NCBI GenBank assembly: GCA_021498095.1 | Contig: JAIZWK010000001.1 | Coordinates: 2,790,001-2,822,000, forward strand | Reading direction: 5' to 3' | DNA length: 32,000 nt | DNA from: Candidatus Harpocratesius repetitus | GTDB taxonomy: Archaea; Asgardarchaeota; Lokiarchaeia; Sigyniarchaeales; Promethearchaeaceae | Shown here: in pieces, positions 4,325 through 23,827 of the stretch | Layout: every line of letters starts with the position of its first letter | Numbering within the stretch: the first letter of the stretch is position 1 | Translations under genes and position numbers: made by a program | Notes under the pieces: model-generated | The model's input: only the letters and a program-made list of their open reading frames with translations | The model's database searches: none | What the model was told of the DNA's origin: nothing

Positions 4325-4671
4325 ACCAATAACTCTCACAAATTGCTCATATAACTTATTTTCATAAAGAATATCTTAGAAAATCTAAAGAACGAACAGT
4401 TTTTAAAAGAATTGAGCCTATAGAATTTTTTAATTTTAAGTCAAATTTAGTAACCCCTTATAAATCAGTCGAAATTGGGAAAAATAGAATATACAAAAAA
4501 TGAATTCCTATATTTTTAAAGCACATGGTATAGTGGTTATTATAATTGATTTCCGTTCAAGATGTCTCCTGTTCAAACCAAAATGCATTTTTTAAAGAAT
4601 CTGTAAATACAGTTATAGATTCATTTGGAACTTCTTTAAATGCAACCCAACAATCATCACTGGTAGCAGAA

Positions 4672-5622
4672 TTACATTATCAATTCATAACCGCTTTTCA
4701 ATTTAAACTTAGGCCGAAAGTTTTTTGCCCACCTTATATATTCTTCTCGCAGTTCTTTTTCTGGAATTTGCTCCGCAGCAATTAACGCATAGTCCATAAA
4801 TTTAATCCGCTCTGCGGTCCACGTAGTTTCAAACCCGTATTCTTCAAAAAATAGCTTCTCCCACTCCTTATAACGCTCGATATTCTCCTGCTTTCGGGGA
4901 TGGATGAACGAATCAAAATCATACATAAATTCTTCGCTGTTTTCAAACTGGGTGCAGTCCCAGAACTCAATCGGTAGAAAGGAAATATGAGGTATGCGAG
5001 GAAGATTTGAAATGTTAATCCATAATTCAGGATTATGGGTGAATTCAATCGGAATCTCCTTAACTTCGCGCAAACTCCATAATTCCAATTTTTCTAATGA
5101 AATGCTGAATGCCCAATTGATGGGAACCTGCTTCATGCGGTGTTTTCCATCATTTTTGGGCGGCAGCGTTATTTTTTCACCATCGAACATATTTTCATAA
5201 CGCTCATTATAAAAATCTTCACCGATTGAAATTTCCCGCAGGCGATAGCAGTGGGCGAAATCTATGTTGTAATCGTCTAAAACCGCAGCAGTAGTTTCAA
5301 ATTTTTGCAAATATTGATATTGATCGCACTTTAGTGGAATTTTGATATTCGAAAATCTAGAAATGCGAATATATTCTATTTTCGGCGGCCATTTAACCAC
5401 CCGCAGCTGATTTTCTCCAGATATTACAATTTCTCTGCAGTTGATGAAGGCGGAAAAATCTGCTTCGTTATTGGGAAATATGCAGCTATATGCTTCTAAT
5501 TTATATACTTTATCAACATCTTTCCAATTTTTAACATCAAAATCCTGCCTAACCAGTGTTAATACTAATTTATCATTATAAACATGGCTGTATCTCACAT
5601 ATTTTGGATTTTCATTATGCAT
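4672..5622 (-). CDS. Hypothetical protein with degenerate leucine-rich-repeat-like segments
   Basis: 316-aa ORF with ATG start. Recurrent LxxLxI-type segments (CREIVISG, IEYIRISR, LREISIG, LEKLELWSLREVKEIP, LWINISNLPRIP). Many G/C-ending codons. Confidence 0.6.
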   Translation of the reverse strand: MHNENPKYVRYSHVYNDKLVLTLVRQDFDVKNWKDVDKVYKLEAYSCIFPNNEADFSAFINCREIVISGENQLRVVKWPPKIEYIRISRFSNIKIPLKCDQYQYLQKFETTAAVLDDYNIDFAHCYRLREISIGEDFYNERYENMFDGEKITLPPKNDGKHRMKQVPINWAFSISLEKLELWSLREVKEIPIEFTHNPELWINISNLPRIPHISFLPIEFWDCTQFENSEEFMYDFDSFIHPRKQENIERYKEWEKLFFEEYGFETTWTAERIKFMDYALIAAEQIPEKELREEYIRWAKNFRPKFKLKSGYELIM

Positions 5623-5728
5623 AATGCTTCATCCACTTTTTTTTTCCATTTACTTTTATTTTCTTATCCAATGTATATAAAAAAAAACGATATTAAAAAA
5701 TTAACCCCCTCTTCGGCGAACTTATTTT

Positions 5729-7858
5729 TTATCCGATAAATCCCTCAATCGCATCCAAATATGCATCAAAATTATTCATGGCACTTTCATCCGCATACTC
5801 TTCGTAGTATAAGCGCATCTCATTTTTGTATTTCAGATAGTATGCGAAACACTGCTTCAGCATCAGTAACTGCGAATTTGAATTGAAGATACTCACGGGA
5901 TTTTCAATCTGAGCGTACCATTGGTCGAGTCGGGAGTCAAATTGAATGTTGCCGTTCTCATCCAAAGTGGGAACGAAGTATTCGATTGATTTATCTTTAC
6001 TTATCTTAATTGTTATGGTTTCACCTTTAACGCCGAATGCCTTGATGATGCCTTCAATTCGGTTCCATGTGGCAATGTATGCATTTCTATTACTACCATG
6101 GCTTGATTCCATCATCAACTTAATATCGTTGTAAAACCTTTTCTTTTTTAAATTTGAATCTTTCAAATCCTGCTCGGATGAATGCAGCGTATACTGTTCG
6201 TAAACCCACCTTGCCAGCATGGATACGGAGTCTCGGATGCTGGAGCCTTGAAATTGTGCAAGATTGCGGAGGTTGAAAAAGGCACGACCGTCTTCAAGTT
6301 CAATCAGCACCATTTTAGTGGCATCTCCACCAATTTTTTCTCCCATCATTTCAGTAAATTTATCCATACCTTTATGATTTTCAAATATGTTTATCATGGA
6401 TAAGCCGTTCTGGAAGGTAGTCCACACCTTGCGCGATTTTTCTGTATAATATTCGATATTAGTATCTTCTACTCCGTGCATTCCCACGCCGTAAATACCG
6501 GGATACCGCCAATTAACCGCACTGCCGTCCGCTCCAATTAGGTTCAGCATATTCTCAAATACCAGAAAATCCATAACGAAGCGCTCAATCCCATTATTTA
6601 TTTTGGGTTCGTTGGTTTTATAATATTCTTCATTCACCGGGTCCCACAAATCCATGGAAAACTGTGGAATTATCATGGAATAGGGCGAAGGTGTGGTAGG
6701 GACAATGTCTTTAACGGCATCTGAAATCGGGGTGCCGAGTTGGAAGAATTTAATTTTGTGTTCTTCATCATTTTGAATTTGACCGACCATACTTCCGAAA
6801 ACCAACACTTCTCTTCCCGAACCGATCATTTCACTTTTAGCCATTCCGAATTGTATGAAATTTGCAATAAATGCATTTTTTTTGGCACCTATTATTATGA
6901 TTGGGTCGGGGAGGGCGCTGGGGGGCACATAGTAGTGATGATCATCGACTACTTTTTCGCTGAGATAGTTTTTAACTCTATCTTGATCTGGAGATTCTAA
7001 TTTATTTTGAACAAGATAATCGATAGTTGAGCGAAATGCTTCGATATTGGTAAAAAGGGATGCCAAAGAAATCCAAGCTGCCTGCATCAGCTCCCATTCG
7101 TGAATTTGGGATGAAGAAAGCAAAGAACCAATACTATACAATTTTGATTCTTTAATAAATTGTAAATATTCGCTGTATCCAAGTCTTTTCTGCAAAAACT
7201 GGGTCAAATAATCAGCAGCACCTCCAGGATTAACTGCAATTTTCTTATCTGTAAAACCTCCTGCATCTTGGGAAATTTCACTGATTTTATATAAAATATA
7301 TTCAATTTGATTAATTACTCCATTATTCCATCTTAATGTATGATCCTTTTTTTTACGGACAGTCCGCCAGTATTTATGAGTCTTATCCGCGTCAAACAAT
7401 TCTTTTATTTCGCTGATATATTGTAAATCATCTAAGGACTCATCGAAAAAGTGCTCTCTTAATTCTGTGCCGGCGCCGGGAAGGTCTTTATCCAAAGCGT
7501 TAAAATCAAAAAATAAGTCTCTAAGCTGCTCTGCAATATCGGGAACATTCTTATAAATATTTTTTAATGTGCTTCTAATGATTTGTAAACCAAATTTATA
7601 ATTCCATGCATTTGCGTTTTTTCCATTTTTATAATATTTTCTTATACCAGCTATATGGTTTTTTGCAATTTTTTGAAAAGCAAATGAAAGCAGCCGAATT
7701 TCAAATATTCCTTTCCGCCAATTTATATTAGTATATAAAGGAGTTGATTCACCCTCTAAGCTTTTTGCACTTTCCACCTTATTATTTATCAAAATACGAA
7801 CTGTTTGAGATTTTGGATATTCAAGTTGTATACGATTGCATAGGTAAAAATGATTCAA
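5729..7858 (-). CDS. Large hypothetical protein of unknown function; true start uncertain
   Basis: 709 open codons with a normal globular amino-acid composition. The track start is TTG and the first in-frame ATG is only at about codon 257. No motif recognised. Confidence 0.65.
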   Translation of the reverse strand: MNHFYLCNRIQLEYPKSQTVRILINNKVESAKSLEGESTPLYTNINWRKGIFEIRLLSFAFQKIAKNHIAGIRKYYKNGKNANAWNYKFGLQIIRSTLKNIYKNVPDIAEQLRDLFFDFNALDKDLPGAGTELREHFFDESLDDLQYISEIKELFDADKTHKYWRTVRKKKDHTLRWNNGVINQIEYILYKISEISQDAGGFTDKKIAVNPGGAADYLTQFLQKRLGYSEYLQFIKESKLYSIGSLLSSSQIHEWELMQAAWISLASLFTNIEAFRSTIDYLVQNKLESPDQDRVKNYLSEKVVDDHHYYVPPSALPDPIIIIGAKKNAFIANFIQFGMAKSEMIGSGREVLVFGSMVGQIQNDEEHKIKFFQLGTPISDAVKDIVPTTPSPYSMIIPQFSMDLWDPVNEEYYKTNEPKINNGIERFVMDFLVFENMLNLIGADGSAVNWRYPGIYGVGMHGVEDTNIEYYTEKSRKVWTTFQNGLSMINIFENHKGMDKFTEMMGEKIGGDATKMVLIELEDGRAFFNLRNLAQFQGSSIRDSVSMLARWVYEQYTLHSSEQDLKDSNLKKKRFYNDIKLMMESSHGSNRNAYIATWNRIEGIIKAFGVKGETITIKISKDKSIEYFVPTLDENGNIQFDSRLDQWYAQIENPVSIFNSNSQLLMLKQCFAYYLKYKNEMRLYYEEYADESAMNNFDAYLDAIEGFIG

Positions 7859-8046
7859 AATTCTTAACTAAATTAAAGATGAGTTGTTATTTTCAAAGAT
7901 TAAATTTTGATTTGTCTATTTCTTTTTCCAGTTATATTACAAAAAGATCATAATGTTAAATATTTACGATGATAAAACATATAATTATTAAGAATCACAT
8001 AAATATTTTTTATTATTTATGAATAATTTGAAGGAGAAACTAAAAA

Positions 8047-8325
8047 ATGAACGATCAAATACCTCCAGCAACAAATGAAAAATGGCAAGCTCTAATTCTT
8101 GGACTAGATTACAAAAATTTTGAGTTCTTTCCTGTAAAATTGCTTTTAGCTAGATTGCAATTGAAAGTAAAACAAGATCCAAGCGAAGAAAATGTTTTAC
8201 AATGTTCTAAAGAATTAAGACAATTATTTGTGAAAAATCAGCACATTCCTAAAGCGAAAAGGGATCTAGATAAAATTTTCAAAAAGAAATTTAATTTCAA
8301 AAGATTTTTAAGAAGGAGAAGATAA
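8047..8325 (+). CDS. Small hypothetical helical protein upstream of the FIST-like gene
   Basis: 92-aa ORF preceded by GAAGGAG (8030-8036). IPPxTNEKW...EFFPVKLLLARL...DLDKI looks like a real conserved small protein (recalled resemblance only). Its stop lies in the first unit of the 15/30-bp repeat. Confidence 0.65.
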   Translation: MNDQIPPATNEKWQALILGLDYKNFEFFPVKLLLARLQLKVKQDPSEENVLQCSKELRQLFVKNQHIPKAKRDLDKIFKKKFNFKRFLRRRR

Positions 8326-8416
8326 AGAAAAAGAAGATAAAGAAGGAGAAGATAAAGAAAAAGAAGATAAAGAAGGAGAAGATAAAGAAAAAGAAGATAA
8401 AGAAGGAGAAGATAAA
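8311..8416 (+). repeat. Tandem repeat of seven alternating 15-bp units (AGAAGGAGAAGATAA / AGAAAAAGAAGATAA), i.e. a 30-bp unit x 3.5
   Basis: Read directly: the 30-mer AGAAGGAGAAGATAAAGAAAAAGAAGATAA starts at 8311, 8341 and 8371, with a half copy at 8401. Confidence 0.97.
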
Positions 8417-8418
8417 AA

Positions 8419-9441
8419 ATGACAGAAATAAAGATGAATAATCAATTAATGACACTCGAACAGACAAATTTGCTTATTGAGAGTGGAAAATTTTTGATGA
8501 TAGCAGGAGATGAAAAACTTCTATTGCAATTAAAAAAAGGTAACTGGATTGCAGGAACAATACCATACTTCATGGATGTTAATGGTGGTGTTTCTACAAG
8601 AGATGAATGTTTTGTCACCGTGTTACCTGATTTTATTCTTGATTTAGAAATAAAAACATATGATAAAGATGATATTAAAAATGTTTTCGTCGATAGTAAA
8701 GATAATGGAATTAATTTTATTATTATTCCTGCAATGAGTGAAGTTCATTTCAACTTTGCTTTAAATGCTCCGATTTTTAAAAATTTTGGATATAATCCTT
8801 TAATTGGATGGATTGCCGGAGTTCATTTGGATGATATTAATAATACAACGGCAAAAACCGCAACTGGATTAACTGGAGAACTTAAGAATGAATACGCAGT
8901 TGTAATTCATGGATCACTTCCTGATACAAAATATGCTGAGATAGATATTGTAAATATTTTTACCCAAGGCTCAGGAGATGAAATTCAATTTTTAGAAGAC
9001 AGTTTCAAGGTTAAAGATGCTTTAATAAATGGTAAGAAGCAAAATTTTGCAGAATATCTCAAAAAAATTAATCATGATACCCGATTTCCATTGGTTGCAG
9101 ATTACATGGGTGTAATGATAAATATCAGTTATCAATCAATAGATGAAGATAACATGGAAGTAAATTTTTATGCTCCTGTATTTAAAGGACAGATATATAA
9201 AAATGCTGAAAAATTAGAAGATTATGTCTCAAAATTTGAACATGAAATGCCTAAAGAAGATATAAATTATATTACTTTTAGTTGTAATTGTATTTTAAAT
9301 TATCTTTATTCAGAATTAGAAGGAAAGAAAACAGAGGGAATTACTGGGCCTATAACATTTGGTGAAATAGGATACCAACTTTTGAATCAAACTTTAGTTT
9401 ATATTACAATAAAAGATTACACAGATGAAGAATTGAAATAA
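8419..9441 (+). CDS. FIST-like / DUF6976-like protein
   Basis: 340 aa. N-terminal LMIAGDEKLLLQLKKGNWIAGTIPYFM; C-terminal FSCNCILNYLY...GPITFGEIGYQLLNQT resembles the FIST-C signature (SC...G..T.GEI....NQT). Family recalled, not searched. Confidence 0.7.
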   Translation: MTEIKMNNQLMTLEQTNLLIESGKFLMIAGDEKLLLQLKKGNWIAGTIPYFMDVNGGVSTRDECFVTVLPDFILDLEIKTYDKDDIKNVFVDSKDNGINFIIIPAMSEVHFNFALNAPIFKNFGYNPLIGWIAGVHLDDINNTTAKTATGLTGELKNEYAVVIHGSLPDTKYAEIDIVNIFTQGSGDEIQFLEDSFKVKDALINGKKQNFAEYLKKINHDTRFPLVADYMGVMINISYQSIDEDNMEVNFYAPVFKGQIYKNAEKLEDYVSKFEHEMPKEDINYITFSCNCILNYLYSELEGKKTEGITGPITFGEIGYQLLNQTLVYITIKDYTDEELK

Positions 9442-14887: not shown

Positions 14888-15928
14888 TCATTCAACTAAT
14901 ATCTCATCTGATGATGATTGATTCTGCCCTTCTATTTTGTGTATCAGCGATAAATCATCCCATTTTCCACATTTACTCCCCCATCTCGCGAGTAATTGAT
15001 TATTTTTGAATATTTCAACAATCTCACAAACATTCGGACAATCGGAGCATTCAAAACCTGTTGTTCGAAATCTTAACTGTGGAATATTCCACCCAAGAAA
15101 TTTTGATGGACGAGGTTTCCTTTCTATCTCTTCATGAGCTAAAATAGCCGCTCCTATAGCACCCATAACATCATAATATGGTGGAACAATAATCTTATAT
15201 CCGAGATTCTCAGCAAATGCTTTTCTAATTCCTTTATTAGCAGCTACCCCACCTTGAAACATTATTGGAGGAAGGATTTCTTTACCTTTAGCTACATTAT
15301 TAAGATAATTGCGAACCAAAGCTTCACATAATCCGCGAATAATATCTTGCTCTGGATATCCAAGCTGCTGTTTATGAATCATATCACTTTCCGCAAATAC
15401 CGTACAGCGACCAGCTATAGATACTGGATTTGTAGATTTTAATGCATAATCCCCAAATTCTTCAATCGGAATTTTAATTCGTCGAGCTTGTTGATCTAAG
15501 AAACTTCCTGTTCCTGCTGCACATACTGTATTCATTGCAAAATCAATAGCTACACCATCCCGTAAAATAATTATTTTGCTGTCTTGACCCCCAATTTCCA
15601 ATACTGTTCTAACATCTGGTTTAAATTCTAAAGCAGCTAAAGAATGTGCTGTGATTTCATTTTTTACAATATCTGCACCAATTAAAACACCAGTCAATTG
15701 TCTTGCTGAACCAGTAGCTCCAGCACCATGTATAGGAAGGTCACATCCAAGTTTATTGCGCATGATTCTGATTGCATTTTGAACAGCTTGTATTGGTTTT
15801 CCATCAGTTCTAATATATACAGATTCAATTACTTTATGATTTTCATCTATTACTGCAACATTGGTTGAAATTGAGCCAACATCAACTCCAATAAAATAAT
15901 TTTGCTCATCCGATTTCATTTTTTTCAC
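14888..15928 (-). CDS. 2-hydroxyacyl-CoA dehydratase activase (BadF/BadG/BcrA/BcrD, HgdC-like ASKHA ATPase)
   Basis: GVDVGSIST, GATGSAR, NEITAH, EIGGQDSK, MNTVCAAGTGSFLDQQA, GRCTVFAESD, GGVAAN; C-terminal CSDCPNVC...WGSKC. Confidence 0.92.
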   Translation of the reverse strand: MKKMKSDEQNYFIGVDVGSISTNVAVIDENHKVIESVYIRTDGKPIQAVQNAIRIMRNKLGCDLPIHGAGATGSARQLTGVLIGADIVKNEITAHSLAALEFKPDVRTVLEIGGQDSKIIILRDGVAIDFAMNTVCAAGTGSFLDQQARRIKIPIEEFGDYALKSTNPVSIAGRCTVFAESDMIHKQQLGYPEQDIIRGLCEALVRNYLNNVAKGKEILPPIMFQGGVAANKGIRKAFAENLGYKIIVPPYYDVMGAIGAAILAHEEIERKPRPSKFLGWNIPQLRFRTTGFECSDCPNVCEIVEIFKNNQLLARWGSKCGKWDDLSLIHKIEGQNQSSSDEILVE

Positions 15929-15978
15929 CCTTTTGTTTGGAACATTAAAGATTTCTCCTTATTTATTCTTCAAATATT

Positions 15979-16338
15979 CTAGATTTCAATTCTCGTTGAT
16001 TTTTTTTTGAATGAAGTAAAAAATTTATTTGATTTTCGCTTTCTGGCTAATAAGTCAACAAAAGCTTCCAAACGAGTCTGAAATCCGGCTTCACCTGTTT
16101 GCTCATCCACAACTAACGAAAGCACAGGAATATCATATAAATGACTAATTTGAGGAAGAATATTTTTTGAGGCAATATGTGGTAAACAAGTAAAGGGATA
16201 CAAATGAATTACCCCGTCCCATCCATTTTTTTTATAGATTATAGTTTCACCGATAGCTTCTCGTGCTTCTCCTCCACATCGATGAGCAGTATAATCAAAT
16301 AAGATACATTTATGAATTCGACTCTGAAATAAGATTGG
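15979..16338 (-). pseudogene. 5'-truncated fragment of the activase-associated 2-hydroxyacyl-CoA dehydratase-like gene
   Basis: Extending the 74-aa track ORF upstream gives CGGEAREAIGETIIYKKNGWDGVIHLYPFTCLPH...DEQTGEAGFQTRLEAF, matching the C-terminus of this family. The frame is closed by TGA at 16339-16341 with no ATG, and the divergent gene starts immediately beyond. Confidence 0.7.
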
Positions 16339-16422
16339 TCATCAGAAATTTATACTTTTCCATTTTTGTATGATTGCAAAGATACCCAAAAGCAAATAAA
16401 ACTAAAACTCTATAATAATATC

Positions 16423-18909
16423 ATGTCTTTTGGAGATATTGTCGTAAGTTTTCTATTAAATATTATCCCATTGATTGTACTACTTTTTCCTATTCCATTT
16501 CTAAAGCGAAAATCGGCTAAAAGATCATTTTATTTGCGATTTTATTATGGTTTGTGTTTTTTCTTTGCAGTATATTGGTTTCTACCTGCTCTCCTTCAGT
16601 TGGAAATCAAATCATTATCAATAGAGGATTCACAATTAAAGCAACCCAGTTTAATTGCCTTATATTTAGTTGTTCGATTCTTTAGCTTAATTACTTCATA
16701 CGCTCAATATCCATTTATCCTTTTACCTCTTATTTTTGTTTTTTCTCCATTTGTATCATTATTGATTCTTTATCTAAGAATTAGAAAGGAGAAAAAAAAT
16801 GATAATTTAGATATTTTTCAAGAAATCCACTATGAATACATGACATCCCCTAAAGAAATGATAAAAAGAGCCCTTCGTAAAAATGACTGGTCAAAAGAAA
16901 AGGAAATGTTCAAAGCATTTTTGATTATTATGCCAATTGCGATATATCTCCTAGCAGTAGTATTAGATATTTCAGGTTTAGAGCCAGTAAATTTGAATAA
17001 AAGCACTACTGCCATCGGAATGTTAATAGAAATATTTTTCGTCTATATTGCCACCTTTTTATATGGATATCAACTAATAAAGGCATCGAAACTCTCATTT
17101 CGCGGAAAATTTATAGGTGAGCAAATAGAAGCGCGATTCTTTTCCAGTTTAAAACAAGTAGGAACCCCAATTGCAATCTTAAGTATTATTCTATTCATTT
17201 TACAGAAAACAGACAGTATACTCCTATTTATCTACATTTTTGGATATTTCTTAATGGCTGCATTTATTTTCATTCTTTTTTTACGTATTTTTGAACCAAT
17301 AAGCATTTTAATTTTATTAAAAATAATCAATGCAAGAAAATGGAAACAGATTGGAAAATTTAAGCACTGGATTCGAGCAATTAAAGAAAAAAGAGAAAGT
17401 TCAGAAAATGAAGAAAGTTCAGAAAATGAAGAAAGTTCAGAAAATGAAGAAAGTTCAGAAAATGAAGAGTCATTAGATCAAAATTTAACATCTACATTAT
17501 CAGAAACACAATCTAATTCATCGGATCTCTCTTTACGAAATATAATTTCATCCAAATACCAAAATACTCAACATCAATCAAAATATCTAATTATCATCGT
17601 ATTGTATGGAATTATTGCCGCTTCTCTTAGTGTAATTGTATTCTTCATAATCTCTTATATTGGATATCTATTTACTCCTTACCTTCCCTCTGGTTCGGAT
17701 ATTACTGTTCTCTCAGCTGCAAGTGCCAATCCAACTTATTTAGTTGCTTTAATTACCGAAATATCTGTTTCTTTACATTCTATAGAATTGATGTTTCGAG
17801 TAATCATTCTGTCATATTTTTTTAACTATGCTCTCCGCACTAAATTGCATAACGCAACTGTTATTTTAATATATGGAGGAACTTTGTTAGCATTGACAAT
17901 TGTTTGTTCAATTTTACTTAGTTCTCCTTTAATAATTCCTTTAAGTTTCTCTGAAGAAACGAGTTGGTTGACCGGTGTGCCGGTTACAATTGAAGATGTA
18001 TCTTTTTCGTTTGTTACTGTTAGGACAGGATTTTTAACCGCTAGTTTTTCAGGAAATATGGTTCTACGTGGTTTAACAATTCCTTTTTATATCTTTAGCC
18101 CATTTTCCACTTTTATCTTATGGGGATATTTATTTTGTTTTGGTAATAAGCAATTTATGGTGAAATCATTTGATAAACAGCATAAATATGTTGAAAGAAC
18201 AACTTTCTCGATAGTTTCATCTGAAAATATCACCGATCTTCCAACATTTTTCAATATTCACCCTGGAGCTTTGATTATGAGAGAAAATGGGCAAAATTTA
18301 TCTGAATTTGAATATAATCTTCCAGAATGGAATGAAATAGCATCAAAACTAATGGAAAAGGGAGAAATAAAATTATCTGAAATAACTGAATCTACATTAA
18401 CTGATGAACGATTTGAAGCATGGTTAAAACATGAAGTTAAATTAAAACATATATCAATTTGGATACCAGAATTTTCTTGCATTTTTGAACGCGCTCAGAT
18501 TGATTCTGTTTATATTTTATATCAAGATGGTAGAAATTTATTTTTCCATCGATTTCAAGCCCTTCAAACTGAAAAAGAGAAAGCCAGAGAAAAATTTGCT
18601 CCTTCATTAGTATCAGGAATGTTTTCAGCAATCACAAGTTTCGTTAAAGAGGTGACCAATTCTGCAGATTTATTACGCAGTATTGATTCTGGAGATAAAA
18701 AAGTGCTCTTGGAATACAGCCAAAGTCTTCCGATTTTTGGTGCCATCTTTGCTGATAGAGAAACAGGACAGGTACGAAGAGCTTTAAAAGATTTTCTTAC
18801 ACGCTTTGGAAACAGACATGGGCATATTTTGGTAAACTGGTCTGGAGATGTTTCGATTTTTTCAGAGGATACAGATCTTTTGAAAGAATCCTTTAAAGAA
18901 TTCTTGTAA
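16423..18909 (+). CDS. Multi-pass membrane protein (about 12 helices) with a C-terminal longin-like domain
   Basis: About 12 hydrophobic segments in two blocks separated by an acidic Ser-rich loop. C-terminal IDSVYILYQDGRNLF...LVSGMFSAITSFVKEV...LRSIDSGDKKVLLE...ALKDFLTRF (nt 18499-18909). ATG 16423 preferred over 16366. Confidence 0.8.
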   Translation: MSFGDIVVSFLLNIIPLIVLLFPIPFLKRKSAKRSFYLRFYYGLCFFFAVYWFLPALLQLEIKSLSIEDSQLKQPSLIALYLVVRFFSLITSYAQYPFILLPLIFVFSPFVSLLILYLRIRKEKKNDNLDIFQEIHYEYMTSPKEMIKRALRKNDWSKEKEMFKAFLIIMPIAIYLLAVVLDISGLEPVNLNKSTTAIGMLIEIFFVYIATFLYGYQLIKASKLSFRGKFIGEQIEARFFSSLKQVGTPIAILSIILFILQKTDSILLFIYIFGYFLMAAFIFILFLRIFEPISILILLKIINARKWKQIGKFKHWIRAIKEKRESSENEESSENEESSENEESSENEESLDQNLTSTLSETQSNSSDLSLRNIISSKYQNTQHQSKYLIIIVLYGIIAASLSVIVFFIISYIGYLFTPYLPSGSDITVLSAASANPTYLVALITEISVSLHSIELMFRVIILSYFFNYALRTKLHNATVILIYGGTLLALTIVCSILLSSPLIIPLSFSEETSWLTGVPVTIEDVSFSFVTVRTGFLTASFSGNMVLRGLTIPFYIFSPFSTFILWGYLFCFGNKQFMVKSFDKQHKYVERTTFSIVSSENITDLPTFFNIHPGALIMRENGQNLSEFEYNLPEWNEIASKLMEKGEIKLSEITESTLTDERFEAWLKHEVKLKHISIWIPEFSCIFERAQIDSVYILYQDGRNLFFHRFQALQTEKEKAREKFAPSLVSGMFSAITSFVKEVTNSADLLRSIDSGDKKVLLEYSQSLPIFGAIFADRETGQVRRALKDFLTRFGNRHGHILVNWSGDVSIFSEDTDLLKESFKEFL
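17395..17466 (+). repeat. In-frame 18-bp tandem repeat x 4 encoding (ESSENE)4
   Basis: GAAAGTTCAGAAAATGAA starts at 17395, 17413, 17431 and 17449, with identical codons in each copy. Confidence 0.97.
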
Positions 18910-18933
18910 TCAAAAATCTATCATTTTTATTTC

Positions 18934-19128
18934 TTCTATTCTTCTATTCTTCTATTCTTCTATTCTTTTATTCTTTTATTCTTTTATTCTTTTATTCTTT
19001 TATCCTTCTATCATTCTTTTATTCTTTTATTCTTTTATTCTTTTATCCTTTTATCCTTTTATCCTTTTATCCTTTTATCCTTCTATCATTCTATCATTCT
19101 ATCATTCTATCATTCTATCATTCTATTC
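18934..19128. repeat. Compound 8-bp tandem array, 24 units in variant blocks
   Basis: TTCTATTC x4, TTTTATTC x4, TTTTATCC x1, TTCTATCA x1, extra TTC, TTTTATTC x3, TTTTATCC x5, TTCTATCA x5, TTCTATTC x1. Lies between convergent genes. Confidence 0.95.
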
Positions 19129-19680
19129 AAATTCTTTTTCCTTTATTTCTTCTTTTAAAATCAAGGGTTCTCCATATTCATTATCAAAACATAATTCAGA
19201 TAGTGATAAACGCTCTTTAGCGGGAGGAACTTCTTCAAAATATCCAATAGGTGTAATTCCAATAACACGACATTTAGGTGGAATTGAAAGAGCACTTTTT
19301 ACAGCATCTTCATCGAACCATCCTATCCAGCAAGTACCTAAACCTTCGTTGGTGGCAGCTAAAATAAGATGTTCCATTATAATAGCGGCATCAACTGGAA
19401 AATAGTTCATTTTATTTCGAGCAATACCAGATTGTTCAGGATCAATGCATACTACTAAGAAAGTAACCGCGGATTCAGTCCATTTTTGACCAATTGCATC
19501 AATTAATTGTTCAACTTTATCAGATTGCGAAACTACAATAATACGAGAACCTTGTTTATGCGCCCAAGAAGGTGCAACTTGTGCAGCAGAAAGAATCCGA
19601 GTAAGAATACTTGTCGGAATGGGTTGATTGATATATTTTCGGATACTACGCCGTTTTGATATCAATTCAGAAAAATCCAT
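19123..19680 (-). CDS. Nitroreductase family protein
   Basis: RRSIRKY, AAQVAPSWAHKQ, DAAIIMEHLILAATNEGLGTCWIG, ITPIGY. Confidence 0.93.
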   Translation of the reverse strand: MDFSELISKRRSIRKYINQPIPTSILTRILSAAQVAPSWAHKQGSRIIVVSQSDKVEQLIDAIGQKWTESAVTFLVVCIDPEQSGIARNKMNYFPVDAAIIMEHLILAATNEGLGTCWIGWFDEDAVKSALSIPPKCRVIGITPIGYFEEVPPAKERLSLSELCFDNEYGEPLILKEEIKEKEFE

Positions 19681-19744
19681 AATTACTTTTGCAAATCATT
19701 TGCTCAAATTTAACTTATCGAAATCTTTGGTACTATCTATAAAT

Positions 19745-20230
19745 GCATATTTTCTTCTTTGATTGTTTTCTTCTTTGATTATTTTCTTCTTTGATTATTT
19801 TCTTCTTTGATTATTTTCTTCTTTGATTATTTTCTTCTTTGATTATTTTCTTCTTTGATTATTTTCTTCTTTGATTATTTTCTTCTTTGATTATTTTCTT
19901 CTTTGATTATTTTCTTCTTTGATTATTTTCTTCTTTGATTATTTTCTTCTTTGATTATTTTCTTCTTTGATTGTTTTCTTCTTTGATTATTTTCTTCTTT
20001 GATTATTTTCTTCTTTGATTATTTTCTTCTTTGATTATTTTCTTCTTTGATTATTTTCTTCTTTGATTATTTTCTTCTTTGATTATTTTCTTCTTTGATT
20101 ATTTTCTTCTTTGATTATTTTCTTCTTTGATTATTTTCTTCTTTGATTATTTTCTTCTTTGATTATTTTCTTCTTTGATTATTTTCTTCTTTGATTATTT
20201 TCTTCTTTGATTATTTTCTTCTTTGATTAT
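19745..20230. repeat. 16-bp tandem array GATTATTTTCTTCTTT x 29 full units, plus one degenerate and one partial flanking unit
   Basis: Units start every 16 bp from 19761 to 20209. 27 are identical; units at 19761 and 19969 read GATTGTTTTCTTCTTT. Degenerate unit at 19745-19760, partial GATTAT at 20225-20230. No spacers. Confidence 0.98.
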
Positions 20231-20332
20231 CTGTAGATTTATATGATATCTTTTTCTATTATTGTCTTTTTGCTCTGATAACACAAAGCTAGATCTTTAA
20301 TATTAAGTACCACTCATATAATACTGATCATC

Positions 20333-21022
20333 ATGTTAGAATATAAAAATATCAAAATTCGCTGGTTAGGACATGATAGCTTTCTAATTCAAACCAATAA
20401 ATCAACTGGAAATAACGAAATTACCATATATTTAGATCCGTATGAAATTTCAAGGAAAGATTTTCCAAAAGCAGATATTGTGATAACTTCTCATGAGCAT
20501 TTTGATCACTGTCATCCAGATTCCATTAATCTTATAAGTGCATCTTCTACTATTCTTGTGGGTCCTCCAATCACACACGATACTTTAAGAAATAAAGTTA
20601 AAACTAAGAAGGAAATTATCTCTTTATCTCCTAATGAAACTATAAATATCAAAGGAATTAAGATTTCTGCAATTCCTGCCTATAATACACACCGATTTCG
20701 AGCACCAGGGAAACCTTTCCATCCGAAAGATTCAGGACATATAGGAACAATACTTCATCTTGGAGAAATCACAATATATCATTCAGGAGATACGGATAAA
20801 ATTACAGAAATGGAAAATTTAAGACCAACTATCGCACTTTTGCCTGTTAGTGGAACGTATGTAATGGATGCACAAGAATGTGCAGAAGCAGTAAAGATAA
20901 TCAATCCAGAAATTGTTATTCCCATGCATGTTGGTCGAGGCATAGGCAGTTTAGATGCTCGATTTGAACTTCGTGATTTACTTCCTTCTTATCGAGTTGA
21001 AATTCTTGATCTCGAAGAGTAA
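20333..21022 (+). CDS. Metallo-beta-lactamase-fold hydrolase (UlaG/UPF0173-like)
   Basis: RWLGHDSF, YLDPY, TSHEHFDH, YHSGDT, LLPVSG, VIPMH. Confidence 0.92.
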   Translation: MLEYKNIKIRWLGHDSFLIQTNKSTGNNEITIYLDPYEISRKDFPKADIVITSHEHFDHCHPDSINLISASSTILVGPPITHDTLRNKVKTKKEIISLSPNETINIKGIKISAIPAYNTHRFRAPGKPFHPKDSGHIGTILHLGEITIYHSGDTDKITEMENLRPTIALLPVSGTYVMDAQECAEAVKIINPEIVIPMHVGRGIGSLDARFELRDLLPSYRVEILDLEE

Positions 21023-21198
21023 TAAGAAGTTAAACTATCTTTTCTATTTTTTTTACTATAGAGTTAAAGTGGGTTTGATTTAAAGTCAAGATATAGATTA
21101 TAATGATTTTTTGAAGAGAAAATTGAATCATTAGGTTTATATGATGTGATTCCATAATAAAAATAAGATTTTTCAGAAAAATCGAAGTGAATTGTAAT

Positions 21199-21600
21199 AT
21201 GGCAGATAAAGAAAAGTTAATGGAAAAAATTGAAGATGGAGAATTTTCTATCGATGATTTACCAGAATTCCTTGCAGTCTTCAAGGAAATTTGTAATGAA
21301 TCGGAAGATGTTGCTGAAGAAGTTGAAGATTGGGATCGAAAGTTCCAGATTACACTTTCTGATGCAGATAATTTCTGGTTTAAAATTGAAGATGGAAAAT
21401 TTGATTACGGAATGGGAGAAATTGAAGAACCTGATGTCACCTTAGAAATGAATGGAGAAACTGCTGCTGGCGTTTTTACTGGTGAGATCGATGCAACAAG
21501 CGCATATATGAGCGGTGATTTAAAGATTATTGGGCCACTTCCTGATGCAGTTAAATTCCGAACTTTAACAGAATTAGTTCGAGAAGAAATGGAAGACTAA
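21199..21600 (+). CDS. SCP2 sterol/lipid-binding domain protein
   Basis: FWFKIEDGKF...EPDVTLEMN...GEIDATSAYMSGDLKIIGPLPDAVKF is the SCP2 signature. ATG 21199 preferred over the track start 21187. Confidence 0.88.
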   Translation: MADKEKLMEKIEDGEFSIDDLPEFLAVFKEICNESEDVAEEVEDWDRKFQITLSDADNFWFKIEDGKFDYGMGEIEEPDVTLEMNGETAAGVFTGEIDATSAYMSGDLKIIGPLPDAVKFRTLTELVREEMED

Positions 21601-23335: not shown

Positions 23336-23827
23336 GAGTATAGAATTCTCTTTTAACCTTTTTATCCTATAATTTTTTACTTTAAATTTTTTTATCATAT
23401 GAGACTCTAGCAATTTTTTTTATCTTAATCAAATTCTATCTTTTGAGCCAATATTTTCGACAATACTCCCACGCATCCAATTACTATTTGAGTCGGCATC
23501 TTTAAAACATTAAATGCGGTTAAGAATTTCACATTTTCATCATTTTTCTTTGAATTATTGACTTATTTATATGTATTTTTTATAAACGATGTTTCGACAA
23601 AATTATAATTGGGATAGATTTGGGGATTGTGGATAATTTATACAAGATTTTTGGATTTCCTTCAAATTTTCGAATTCTGCTATAACCTCATATAACATTT
23701 ATTCTTATCGAAAAGAAATTTCTTACCAAAACCAATCCAAATTTATATCCAAACTTCAAAATATTAACTAAAATCTCATTCTCATGAAAAATTTCAAAAA
23801 AACACCAAAAAAAAATAAAAAATTAAG

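Follow-up and report, generated by a model that had tools for sequence, protein, structure and literature searches.

The window that we analysed, a stretch of 32,000 nt (positions 2,790,001 to 2,822,000, forward strand, of contig JAIZWK010000001.1) from the genome of Candidatus Harpocratesius repetitus, contains a tandem array of 486 bp (81% A+T) in the spacer between two divergently transcribed genes, of which the minus-strand one encodes a nitroreductase-family protein and the plus-strand one an MBL-fold hydrolase; SCP2 and MFS genes are the other neighbours. The array is separated by 65 bp from the ATG of the nitroreductase gene (19680, minus strand) and by 102 bp from that of the MBL-fold gene (20333), which agrees with the distances of 65 bp and about 100 bp given in an earlier note on this DNA, and the TTTATA hexamer described there is present as well, at 19738-19743 and thus one base away from the 19737-19742 of that note. 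Comparisons were made with a close relative (GCA_054039255.1, contig JBPLBG010000014.1, 'Candidatus Harpocratesius sp.' at NCBI), which was reached via its 92% identical nitroreductase homologue, the named sources of homologues being Candidatus Harpocratesius sp. and Promethearchaeota. The features of the locus, in coordinates of the window and with the strand where one applies, are:

18925-19153: second array, 8-bp units, about 20-28 copies by Tandem Repeats Finder (TRF); 202 nt long, compared with 28 nt at this site in the relative
19123-19680, minus strand: nitroreductase-family gene (PF00881, 7.7e-29), with a 92% identical homologue in Candidatus Harpocratesius sp.
19681-19728, minus strand: nitroreductase-proximal conserved block, with 45/48 positions as in the relative; probably the core promoter and leader
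19738-19743, minus strand: TTTATA, distal TATA-like hexamer (TTTAAG in the relative)
19745-19760: copy 0, a degenerate unit (14/16) and ancestral proto-unit of the array, with a single homologous copy in the relative
19761-20224: 29 full 16-bp units (TRF and sequence)
19761-19776: unit 1, A>G variant (GATTG)
19969-19984: unit 14, which shares the A>G variant of unit 1 and lies 13 units (208 bp) away from it
20225-20230: 6-nt 3' partial unit (GATTAT)
20231-20283: right part of the spacer, poorly conserved (36/59 identical over 20225-20283)
20284-20332, plus strand: MBL-proximal conserved block (47/49 identical to the relative), probable core promoter
20333-21022, plus strand: MBL-fold hydrolase gene (PF13483 Lactamase_B_3, 7.2e-27)

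TRF assigns the array a period of 16, 30.2 copies, 99% matches, no indels and a score of 952 at 19748-20230. The unit, GATTATTTTCTTCTTT, is present in 29 full copies, 27 of them identical and the remaining two (units 1 and 14) sharing a single A>G change that turns GATTA into GATTG, so that both the count and the placement of variants in the earlier note are confirmed by TRF and by the unit register; overall, the copies are 99.6% identical, and two perfect sub-runs of 207 bp and 257 bp lie within the array. The units follow one another directly, head to tail and without spacers, at a length within the range of minisatellites or VNTRs (about 10-100 bp). Because there are no CRISPR-like spacers between them, the array does not qualify as a CRISPR array, and the genome's CRISPR arrays lie elsewhere, at 0.12-0.18 Mb. 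The previous description of the array as non-coding, spacer-free and strand-asymmetric also holds: no ORF of at least 50 aa crosses it, TGA (plus strand) and TAA (minus strand) recur in all frames because 16 is coprime with 3, and only 3 of the 16 bases of the plus-strand unit are purines. On the plus strand, runs of TTTT and TTT occur in every unit, as does a pure pyrimidine run of 11 nt, which includes a 10-nt mirror repeat, TTTCTTCTTT; no dyad symmetry was found within the 16 bp.

The genome consists of one 4.36-Mb contig with a single 10-N gap and two SSU rRNA genes. If it is that of FW102, it was assembled by Canu from Nanopore reads (PCR-barcoded libraries) and polished in ten Pilon rounds with 150-bp reads (PMC8813620), a route that, if applicable, could leave an uncertainty of a few units and could have homogenised internal variants. 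An array inflated and homogenised from a few true copies by long-read assembly or polishing is therefore one explanation to be weighed, given that 150-bp polishing reads cannot span 486 bp and could make units alike. Short-read evidence came from contigs of the source-sample runs X1 and X2, in which the left junction plus five units was matched, and both junctions of the array are present in these contigs. In X1, a 690-nt contig (depth 22) covers 19200-19777 with one mismatch somewhere along it, which may bear on the G of unit 1, and a 3,227-nt contig (depth 14.5) leads from array units at its end into the right flank, while two unitigs of 41 and 35 nt (depths 300 and 314) jointly account for 16 k-mers and form a collapsed repeat loop. 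The depth of this loop is 14-22 times that of the flanks in X1 and about 10 times in X2, with no other genomic site of the 16-mer to raise it, as against the 25-27 occurrences per loop 31-mer that the assembly predicts. The array is thus long in the short reads too and not reduced to a few copies, although the exact figure of 30 is not independently fixed by them. The k-mer depth suggests fewer copies than assembled, for which AT bias, heterogeneity or an error of the assembly could account: with only 19% G+C, the unit may plausibly be depleted in amplified libraries, and a smaller or heterogeneous copy number is equally possible. Given the depth of the loop and the presence of both junctions, we consider it exceedingly improbable that the array as such is an artefact, despite the lower depth ratio.

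In the 4.36-Mb genome, the exact 16-mer occurs 27 times, always within the array, and ten sites outside the array match it with one mismatch; the exact unit dimer was not found in metagenome and viral contig collections. A genome-wide search, as suggested earlier, thus confines the exact word to this locus. Dispersed near-copies of the unit are not in excess (107, as against 63 +/- 28 for shuffled words), and a dispersed regulon motif was rejected on the same grounds, near-matches not rising above shuffled controls. These counts also bear on the proposal that the array serves as a multi-site loading platform for a DNA-binding protein, be it iteron-like, chromatin-organising or partition-like. 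Thirty identical sites at a fixed 16-bp pitch would suit such a role, and the iteron arrays of plasmids, islands and origins are similarly composed of many identical direct repeats of fixed pitch in a gene-free stretch. However, the unit lacks dyad symmetry, near-copies are no more frequent than shuffled words, and no initiator, helicase, partition or regulator gene adjoins the array, the nearest Orc1/Cdc6 gene being about 580 kb away; unlike iteron arrays, it also has no AT-rich unwinding element bracketed by inverted sites and is absent in relatives, so that no conserved protein-site pair is implied. We therefore regard a loading platform, which the earlier note had offered as one function, as unsupported and very unlikely.

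Much the same holds for a functional non-B structure (triplex/H-DNA or slipped DNA) that would affect replication or transcription. The purine/pyrimidine asymmetry of 13/16, the mirror repeat in each unit and the location of the array near a predicted zone of fork convergence (see below) are all compatible with it, but neither strand of the array folds into a hairpin or cruciform (minimum free energy 0 kcal/mol, z 0.4-0.6), and the pyrimidine runs, at 11 nt, are broken every 16 bp and short for stable H-DNA. This role, also among those envisaged earlier, thus finds no support, and its probability must be very low indeed. A search of 18500-21500 against Rfam gave no match at E<=1.

The contig of the close relative is colinear with positions 2,788,227-2,855,910 of the chromosome at 86-94% nucleotide identity, except for two short blocks of 76-78%. 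Its divergent spacer measures 179 bp as opposed to 652 bp here, and the difference of 473 bp is very nearly the length of units 1-29 (464 bp): where copy 0 lies here, the relative carries one homologous copy, GCTTATTTTCTTATTT, after which its sequence aligns directly to the right flank of the array. Assembly collapse does not account for this single diverged copy, because a collapse would leave several units. The site is also spanned by a 24.9-kb contig from an independent 2025 run (X3), whose loose end has the relative's sequence; this contig represents the same relative again and is not independent support. Two congeners (about 70% protein identity) retain the order SCP2 - MBL <> nitroreductase - large membrane protein, with the two inner genes divergent, and have divergent spacers of 102 and 152 bp without an array, and the gene order is common to the three relatives over at least 68 kb. 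Hence, the orthologous spacer contains no array in any of the three, and the length variability anticipated in the earlier note is borne out between lineages, with about 30 copies here, one proto-unit in the relative of about 90% identity and none in the two congeners. The absence of the array from three relatives, together with one native proto-unit in the close relative, indicates that it arose in place and recently, in line with the recent expansion suggested before; by this comparison of sequences, it grew from native sequence after the split from the approximately 90% identical relative.

When units 1-29 are removed and the spacer is aligned with that of the close relative, identity is 45/48 beside the nitroreductase gene, 21/32 to the left of the array, 36/59 to its right and 47/49 beside the MBL-fold gene. 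The array thus occupies the poorly conserved middle of the spacer, and the blocks of about 48 bp beside the start codons (94-96% identical) are untouched. Within the 45/48 block, TTAAATTT is centred about 30 nt from the nitroreductase ATG, and within the 47/49 block, TTTAATATTAA is centred about 32 nt from the MBL ATG; as A/T-rich, TATA-like elements, they would fit leaderless or short-leader transcripts. A genome-wide profile of TATA positions upstream of start codons showed no sharp peak and is uninformative, because start codons taken from crude ORF calls are imprecise. The array lies upstream of both conserved blocks. The status of the TTTATA box is less secure: whereas the hexamer exists, it is only partly conserved (TTTAAG in the relative), and it is TTAAATTT that sits in the conserved block. 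If TTTATA is nonetheless a real TATA box, the ancestral copy 0 still supplies its upstream context. Whichever element is used, the amplification would have lengthened only the DNA upstream of both core promoters.

The placement of arrays across the genome was surveyed by whole-genome TRF and crude gene calling, which yielded 161 intergenic arrays, 25 of them high-quality; of all short-period arrays whose unit length is not a multiple of three, the 16-bp array scores highest. The 161 arrays are spread over the spacer types as expected from each type's portion of the intergenic base pairs. Among the 25, six lie in divergent, 14 in tandem and five in convergent spacers, compared with about 7, 13.5 and 4 expected from spacer length, and promoter-bearing spacers are accordingly not preferred. 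The median distance of arrays is shorter to 3' gene ends (36 nt) than to 5' ends (94 nt), which fits an exclusion of arrays from core promoters.

These data reflect on whether the array is a selected cis-regulatory spacer that uncouples or tunes the divergent promoters, with copy number as a slow rheostat, for instance by moving shared upstream sites apart, by keeping histones out or by halting plus-strand read-through at T-runs. Its location between two divergently transcribed genes, its start 1-2 bp upstream of TTTATA (if that is a real TATA box), its rank as the longest short-period array in the genome and the TTTT and TTT runs in each plus-strand unit can all be read in this way. Against it, the array lies outside the conserved promoter-proximal blocks and is absent from three relatives that keep the gene pair; 16-bp units far upstream leave core-promoter geometry unchanged; and arrays across the genome do not favour spacers that contain promoters, their positions following chromosome geography and not gene identity (see below). 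Promoter tuning, as put forward in the earlier note, is thus unsupported, and we judge selection for a regulatory spacer to be unlikely. The same position sets the array apart from the promoter contingency loci that underlie phase variation in Haemophilus, Neisseria and Mycoplasma, in which units of 1-9 bp lie in the core promoter or reading frame and the gain or loss of one unit switches expression: both involve hypermutable repeats near promoters that might in principle alter expression, but the 16-bp array is non-coding and upstream of both blocks.

We consider it probable instead that the array is a lineage-specific minisatellite (VNTR), formed by slippage or unequal exchange as a near-neutral by-product of an instability of repeats in the region. 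On this view, 16 bp of native sequence in the unconstrained middle of the spacer, bounded by TAT/ATTAT microhomology as expected for a first slippage duplication, were duplicated, and the repeat then grew at the same site through replication slippage, unequal sister exchange or both. According to work cited in PMC9879509, archaeal PolB and PolD slip on repeats. The two G-variant units point to one probable step of 13 units (208 bp) within this amplification, as a single duplication of that size in a 16-copy array with G in its first unit would give the observed order (G, 12 A-type, G, 15 A-type units). The promoter-proximal blocks would thereby have been pushed about 470 bp further apart but left intact, and because they are intact the expansion was most likely tolerated rather than selected, an argument for near-neutrality that draws on position and on the genome-wide pattern. 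A modest effect on the two promoters, cross-talk, chromatin or read-through is nevertheless possible, and an asymmetric tract of 486 bp and 81% A+T could still affect chromatin, supercoiling or read-through.

By its unit structure and its difference in copy number between related genomes, the array is a VNTR or minisatellite. Like the loci used in MLVA typing, it consists of near-identical, intergenic, head-to-tail units (10-60 bp in such loci), differs in copy number between close relatives and has a local seed; unlike them, it is unusually long and homogeneous (30 copies, 99.6%) and belongs to a regional cluster of such loci. The comparison with Borg repeats that the earlier note had drawn holds in form. 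As in Borgs (PMC9879509), perfect runs span at least 50 nt and at least three units (207 and 257 bp here), the intergenic unit has a length not divisible by three and is unique in its genome, it is A-rich on one strand, the array is absent in close relatives, and partial repeats flank it (copy 0, with 14/16 matches, on the left, and 6 nt on the right), with the seed visible in the relative; perfect coding repeats with units divisible by three, also Borg-like, occur near the array. However, whereas Borgs are extrachromosomal and carry repeats throughout, the array lies on a cellular chromosome, in a 4.36-Mb contig whose gene order around the locus is shared with the three relatives, and such arrays are concentrated in one zone. 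It is not a member of the Borg class because it is chromosomal.

Over the 68 kb that can be compared with the close relative, other local arrays are likewise absent or shorter there, namely a 30-mer, an 18-mer (102 nt more of coding sequence here), an 8-mer (202 vs 28 nt), a 23-mer (133 vs about 0 nt) and an 11-mer. Conversely, the relative has an array of its own, TATTTTGGT, with 9-bp units in 14.7 copies (98% matches, merged coordinates 49808-49939) and none here. Repeat turnover therefore runs both ways, and judging from the aligned sequences, repeats are born and lost fast in both lineages in the compared region. The 8-bp array (TTTTATTC and variants) fills the convergent spacer on the other side of the nitroreductase gene and enters its stop codon, the ORF being 185 aa long here and 175 aa in the relative, which has a 7-mer in three copies at this site. 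A shared 8-bp ancestor of the 16-bp and 8-bp arrays was considered and rejected, as the relative shows a separate local seed on each side of the gene. Two of the local arrays named above are perfect repeats: the 18-mer, in 4.2 copies (17394-17468), lies in frame within a membrane protein of 847 aa (794 aa in the relative), with 102 additional nt here at that point, and the Lys/Glu-rich 30-mer, in 3.6 copies (8310-8416), is located between the ORFs at 8047-8325 and 8419-9441 (DUF6976) and about 90 nt longer than in the relative.

High-quality arrays are distributed very unevenly along the chromosome. Of the 25, 21 fall within 2.40-3.21 Mb (counts per octant 0, 2, 0, 1, 10, 11, 0 and 1; chi-square p 4e-8), and when the criteria applied to Borgs are used (perfect, at least 50 nt and at least three units; 37 runs in the genome), 11 of the 13 intergenic perfect runs lie within 2.62-2.93 Mb. 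This zone can be set against the predicted replication geography. The cumulative G-C curve rises from a minimum at 527 kb to a maximum at 2.395 Mb, and the cumulative A-T curve falls from a maximum at 632 kb to a minimum at 2.864 Mb, so that the skews switch at 527-632 kb and at 2.39-2.86 Mb. ORB-like boxes, TTCCAYTGGAAATT, have only two exact matches in the genome, at 609,638 and 609,788 (150 bp apart, through 609,801), both within the first skew switch, and their core, TTCCACTGGAA, equals that of the Pyrococcus ORB/mini-ORB probes bound by Cdc6/Orc1 (PMC1904270). Orc1/Cdc6 genes are found at 0.71, 0.90 and 2.23 Mb; none adjoins the ORB pair, to which the gene at 0.71 Mb is nearest, and the one at 2.23 Mb is near the second skew switch. 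By the usual leading-strand rule (G>C, T>A), these features predict an origin at about 0.6 Mb and a fork-convergence zone at 2.4-2.9 Mb, more than one origin also being possible. The antipode of the ORB pair is position 2,790,462, only 19 kb from the array, and the median distance of the arrays from it is 140 kb as opposed to 1,117 kb under the null (p<2e-4), with 17 of the 25 within 250 kb; perfect coding repeats are weakly enriched around the antipode.

The array would then be the largest product of a regional instability, given that near-perfect intergenic arrays are concentrated in about 0.5 Mb opposite the predicted origin. Tentatively, and with rather more doubt than confidence, we suggest that it may be an extreme product of a generator that depends on replication geography, with Borg-like repeats arising preferentially in the zone of fork convergence, about 0.5 Mb wide, across from the origin. 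Two further signatures were sought and not found. No dif-like site with at most two mismatches to the Thermococcales consensus (PMC4640148) was detected, and the two weak matches with three mismatches lie away from the antipode. Similarly, there is no switch of unit polarity at the antipode, units on either side being pyrimidine-rich on the plus strand (11:6 and 9:4). This plus-strand pyrimidine bias, about 2:1 among arrays up to 500 kb from the antipode, is independent of the orientation of flanking genes. In units of 54 intergenic arrays, the words TTGAT/ATCAA (12 vs 4.6) and TGATT/AATCA (11 vs 4.3) were more frequent than in random intergenic segments, although not significantly so after correction for the words tested.

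In published genomes, Borg-type repeats are reported to be virtually absent from the Methanoperedens chromosome (PMC9879509), and no tandem repeats were seen in the genome of P. syntrophicum (PMC8813620). In the literature that we searched, no paper described terminus-linked enrichment of tandem repeats in prokaryotes or intergenic repeats in Lokiarchaeia chromosomes. Most of the interest therefore lies in the clustering around the origin antipode, which we did not find described in that literature; taken alone, the array belongs to a common type of locus (a VNTR), although its host is unusual. If the clustering does reflect replication, it would link the birth of repeats to the termination of replication, in a lineage with near-eukaryotic replication machinery. 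Replication in the termination zone would then be prone to slippage by its nature, and repeats of the Borg type would not form on extrachromosomal elements alone, which would offer a cellular model for the otherwise unexplained formation of repeats in Borgs. In practical terms, the length of the array can serve directly as a marker by which strains are followed in Harpocratesius enrichments, and the contrast of one unit with about 30 provides a natural series for testing the effect of spacing on divergent archaeal promoters.

Several other differences from the close relative within the window involve longer stretches of DNA. A net insertion of about 3.1 kb at 4446-7934 (3.5 kb unaligned here vs 0.4 kb there) has a G+C content of 35-40%, compared with about 30%, and carries two ORFs (316 and 709 aa) without a Pfam match; it is probably foreign DNA. 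A gene for a BadF/BcrA-type ATPase and a 74-aa ORF (together 1.4 kb, 14926-16359) are absent from the corresponding place in the relative, and in the convergent spacer flanked by the MFS gene and the 2-oxoacid acyltransferase gene (23388-23817), 428 bp do not align here vs 89 bp in the relative, the extra sequence not being a tandem array.
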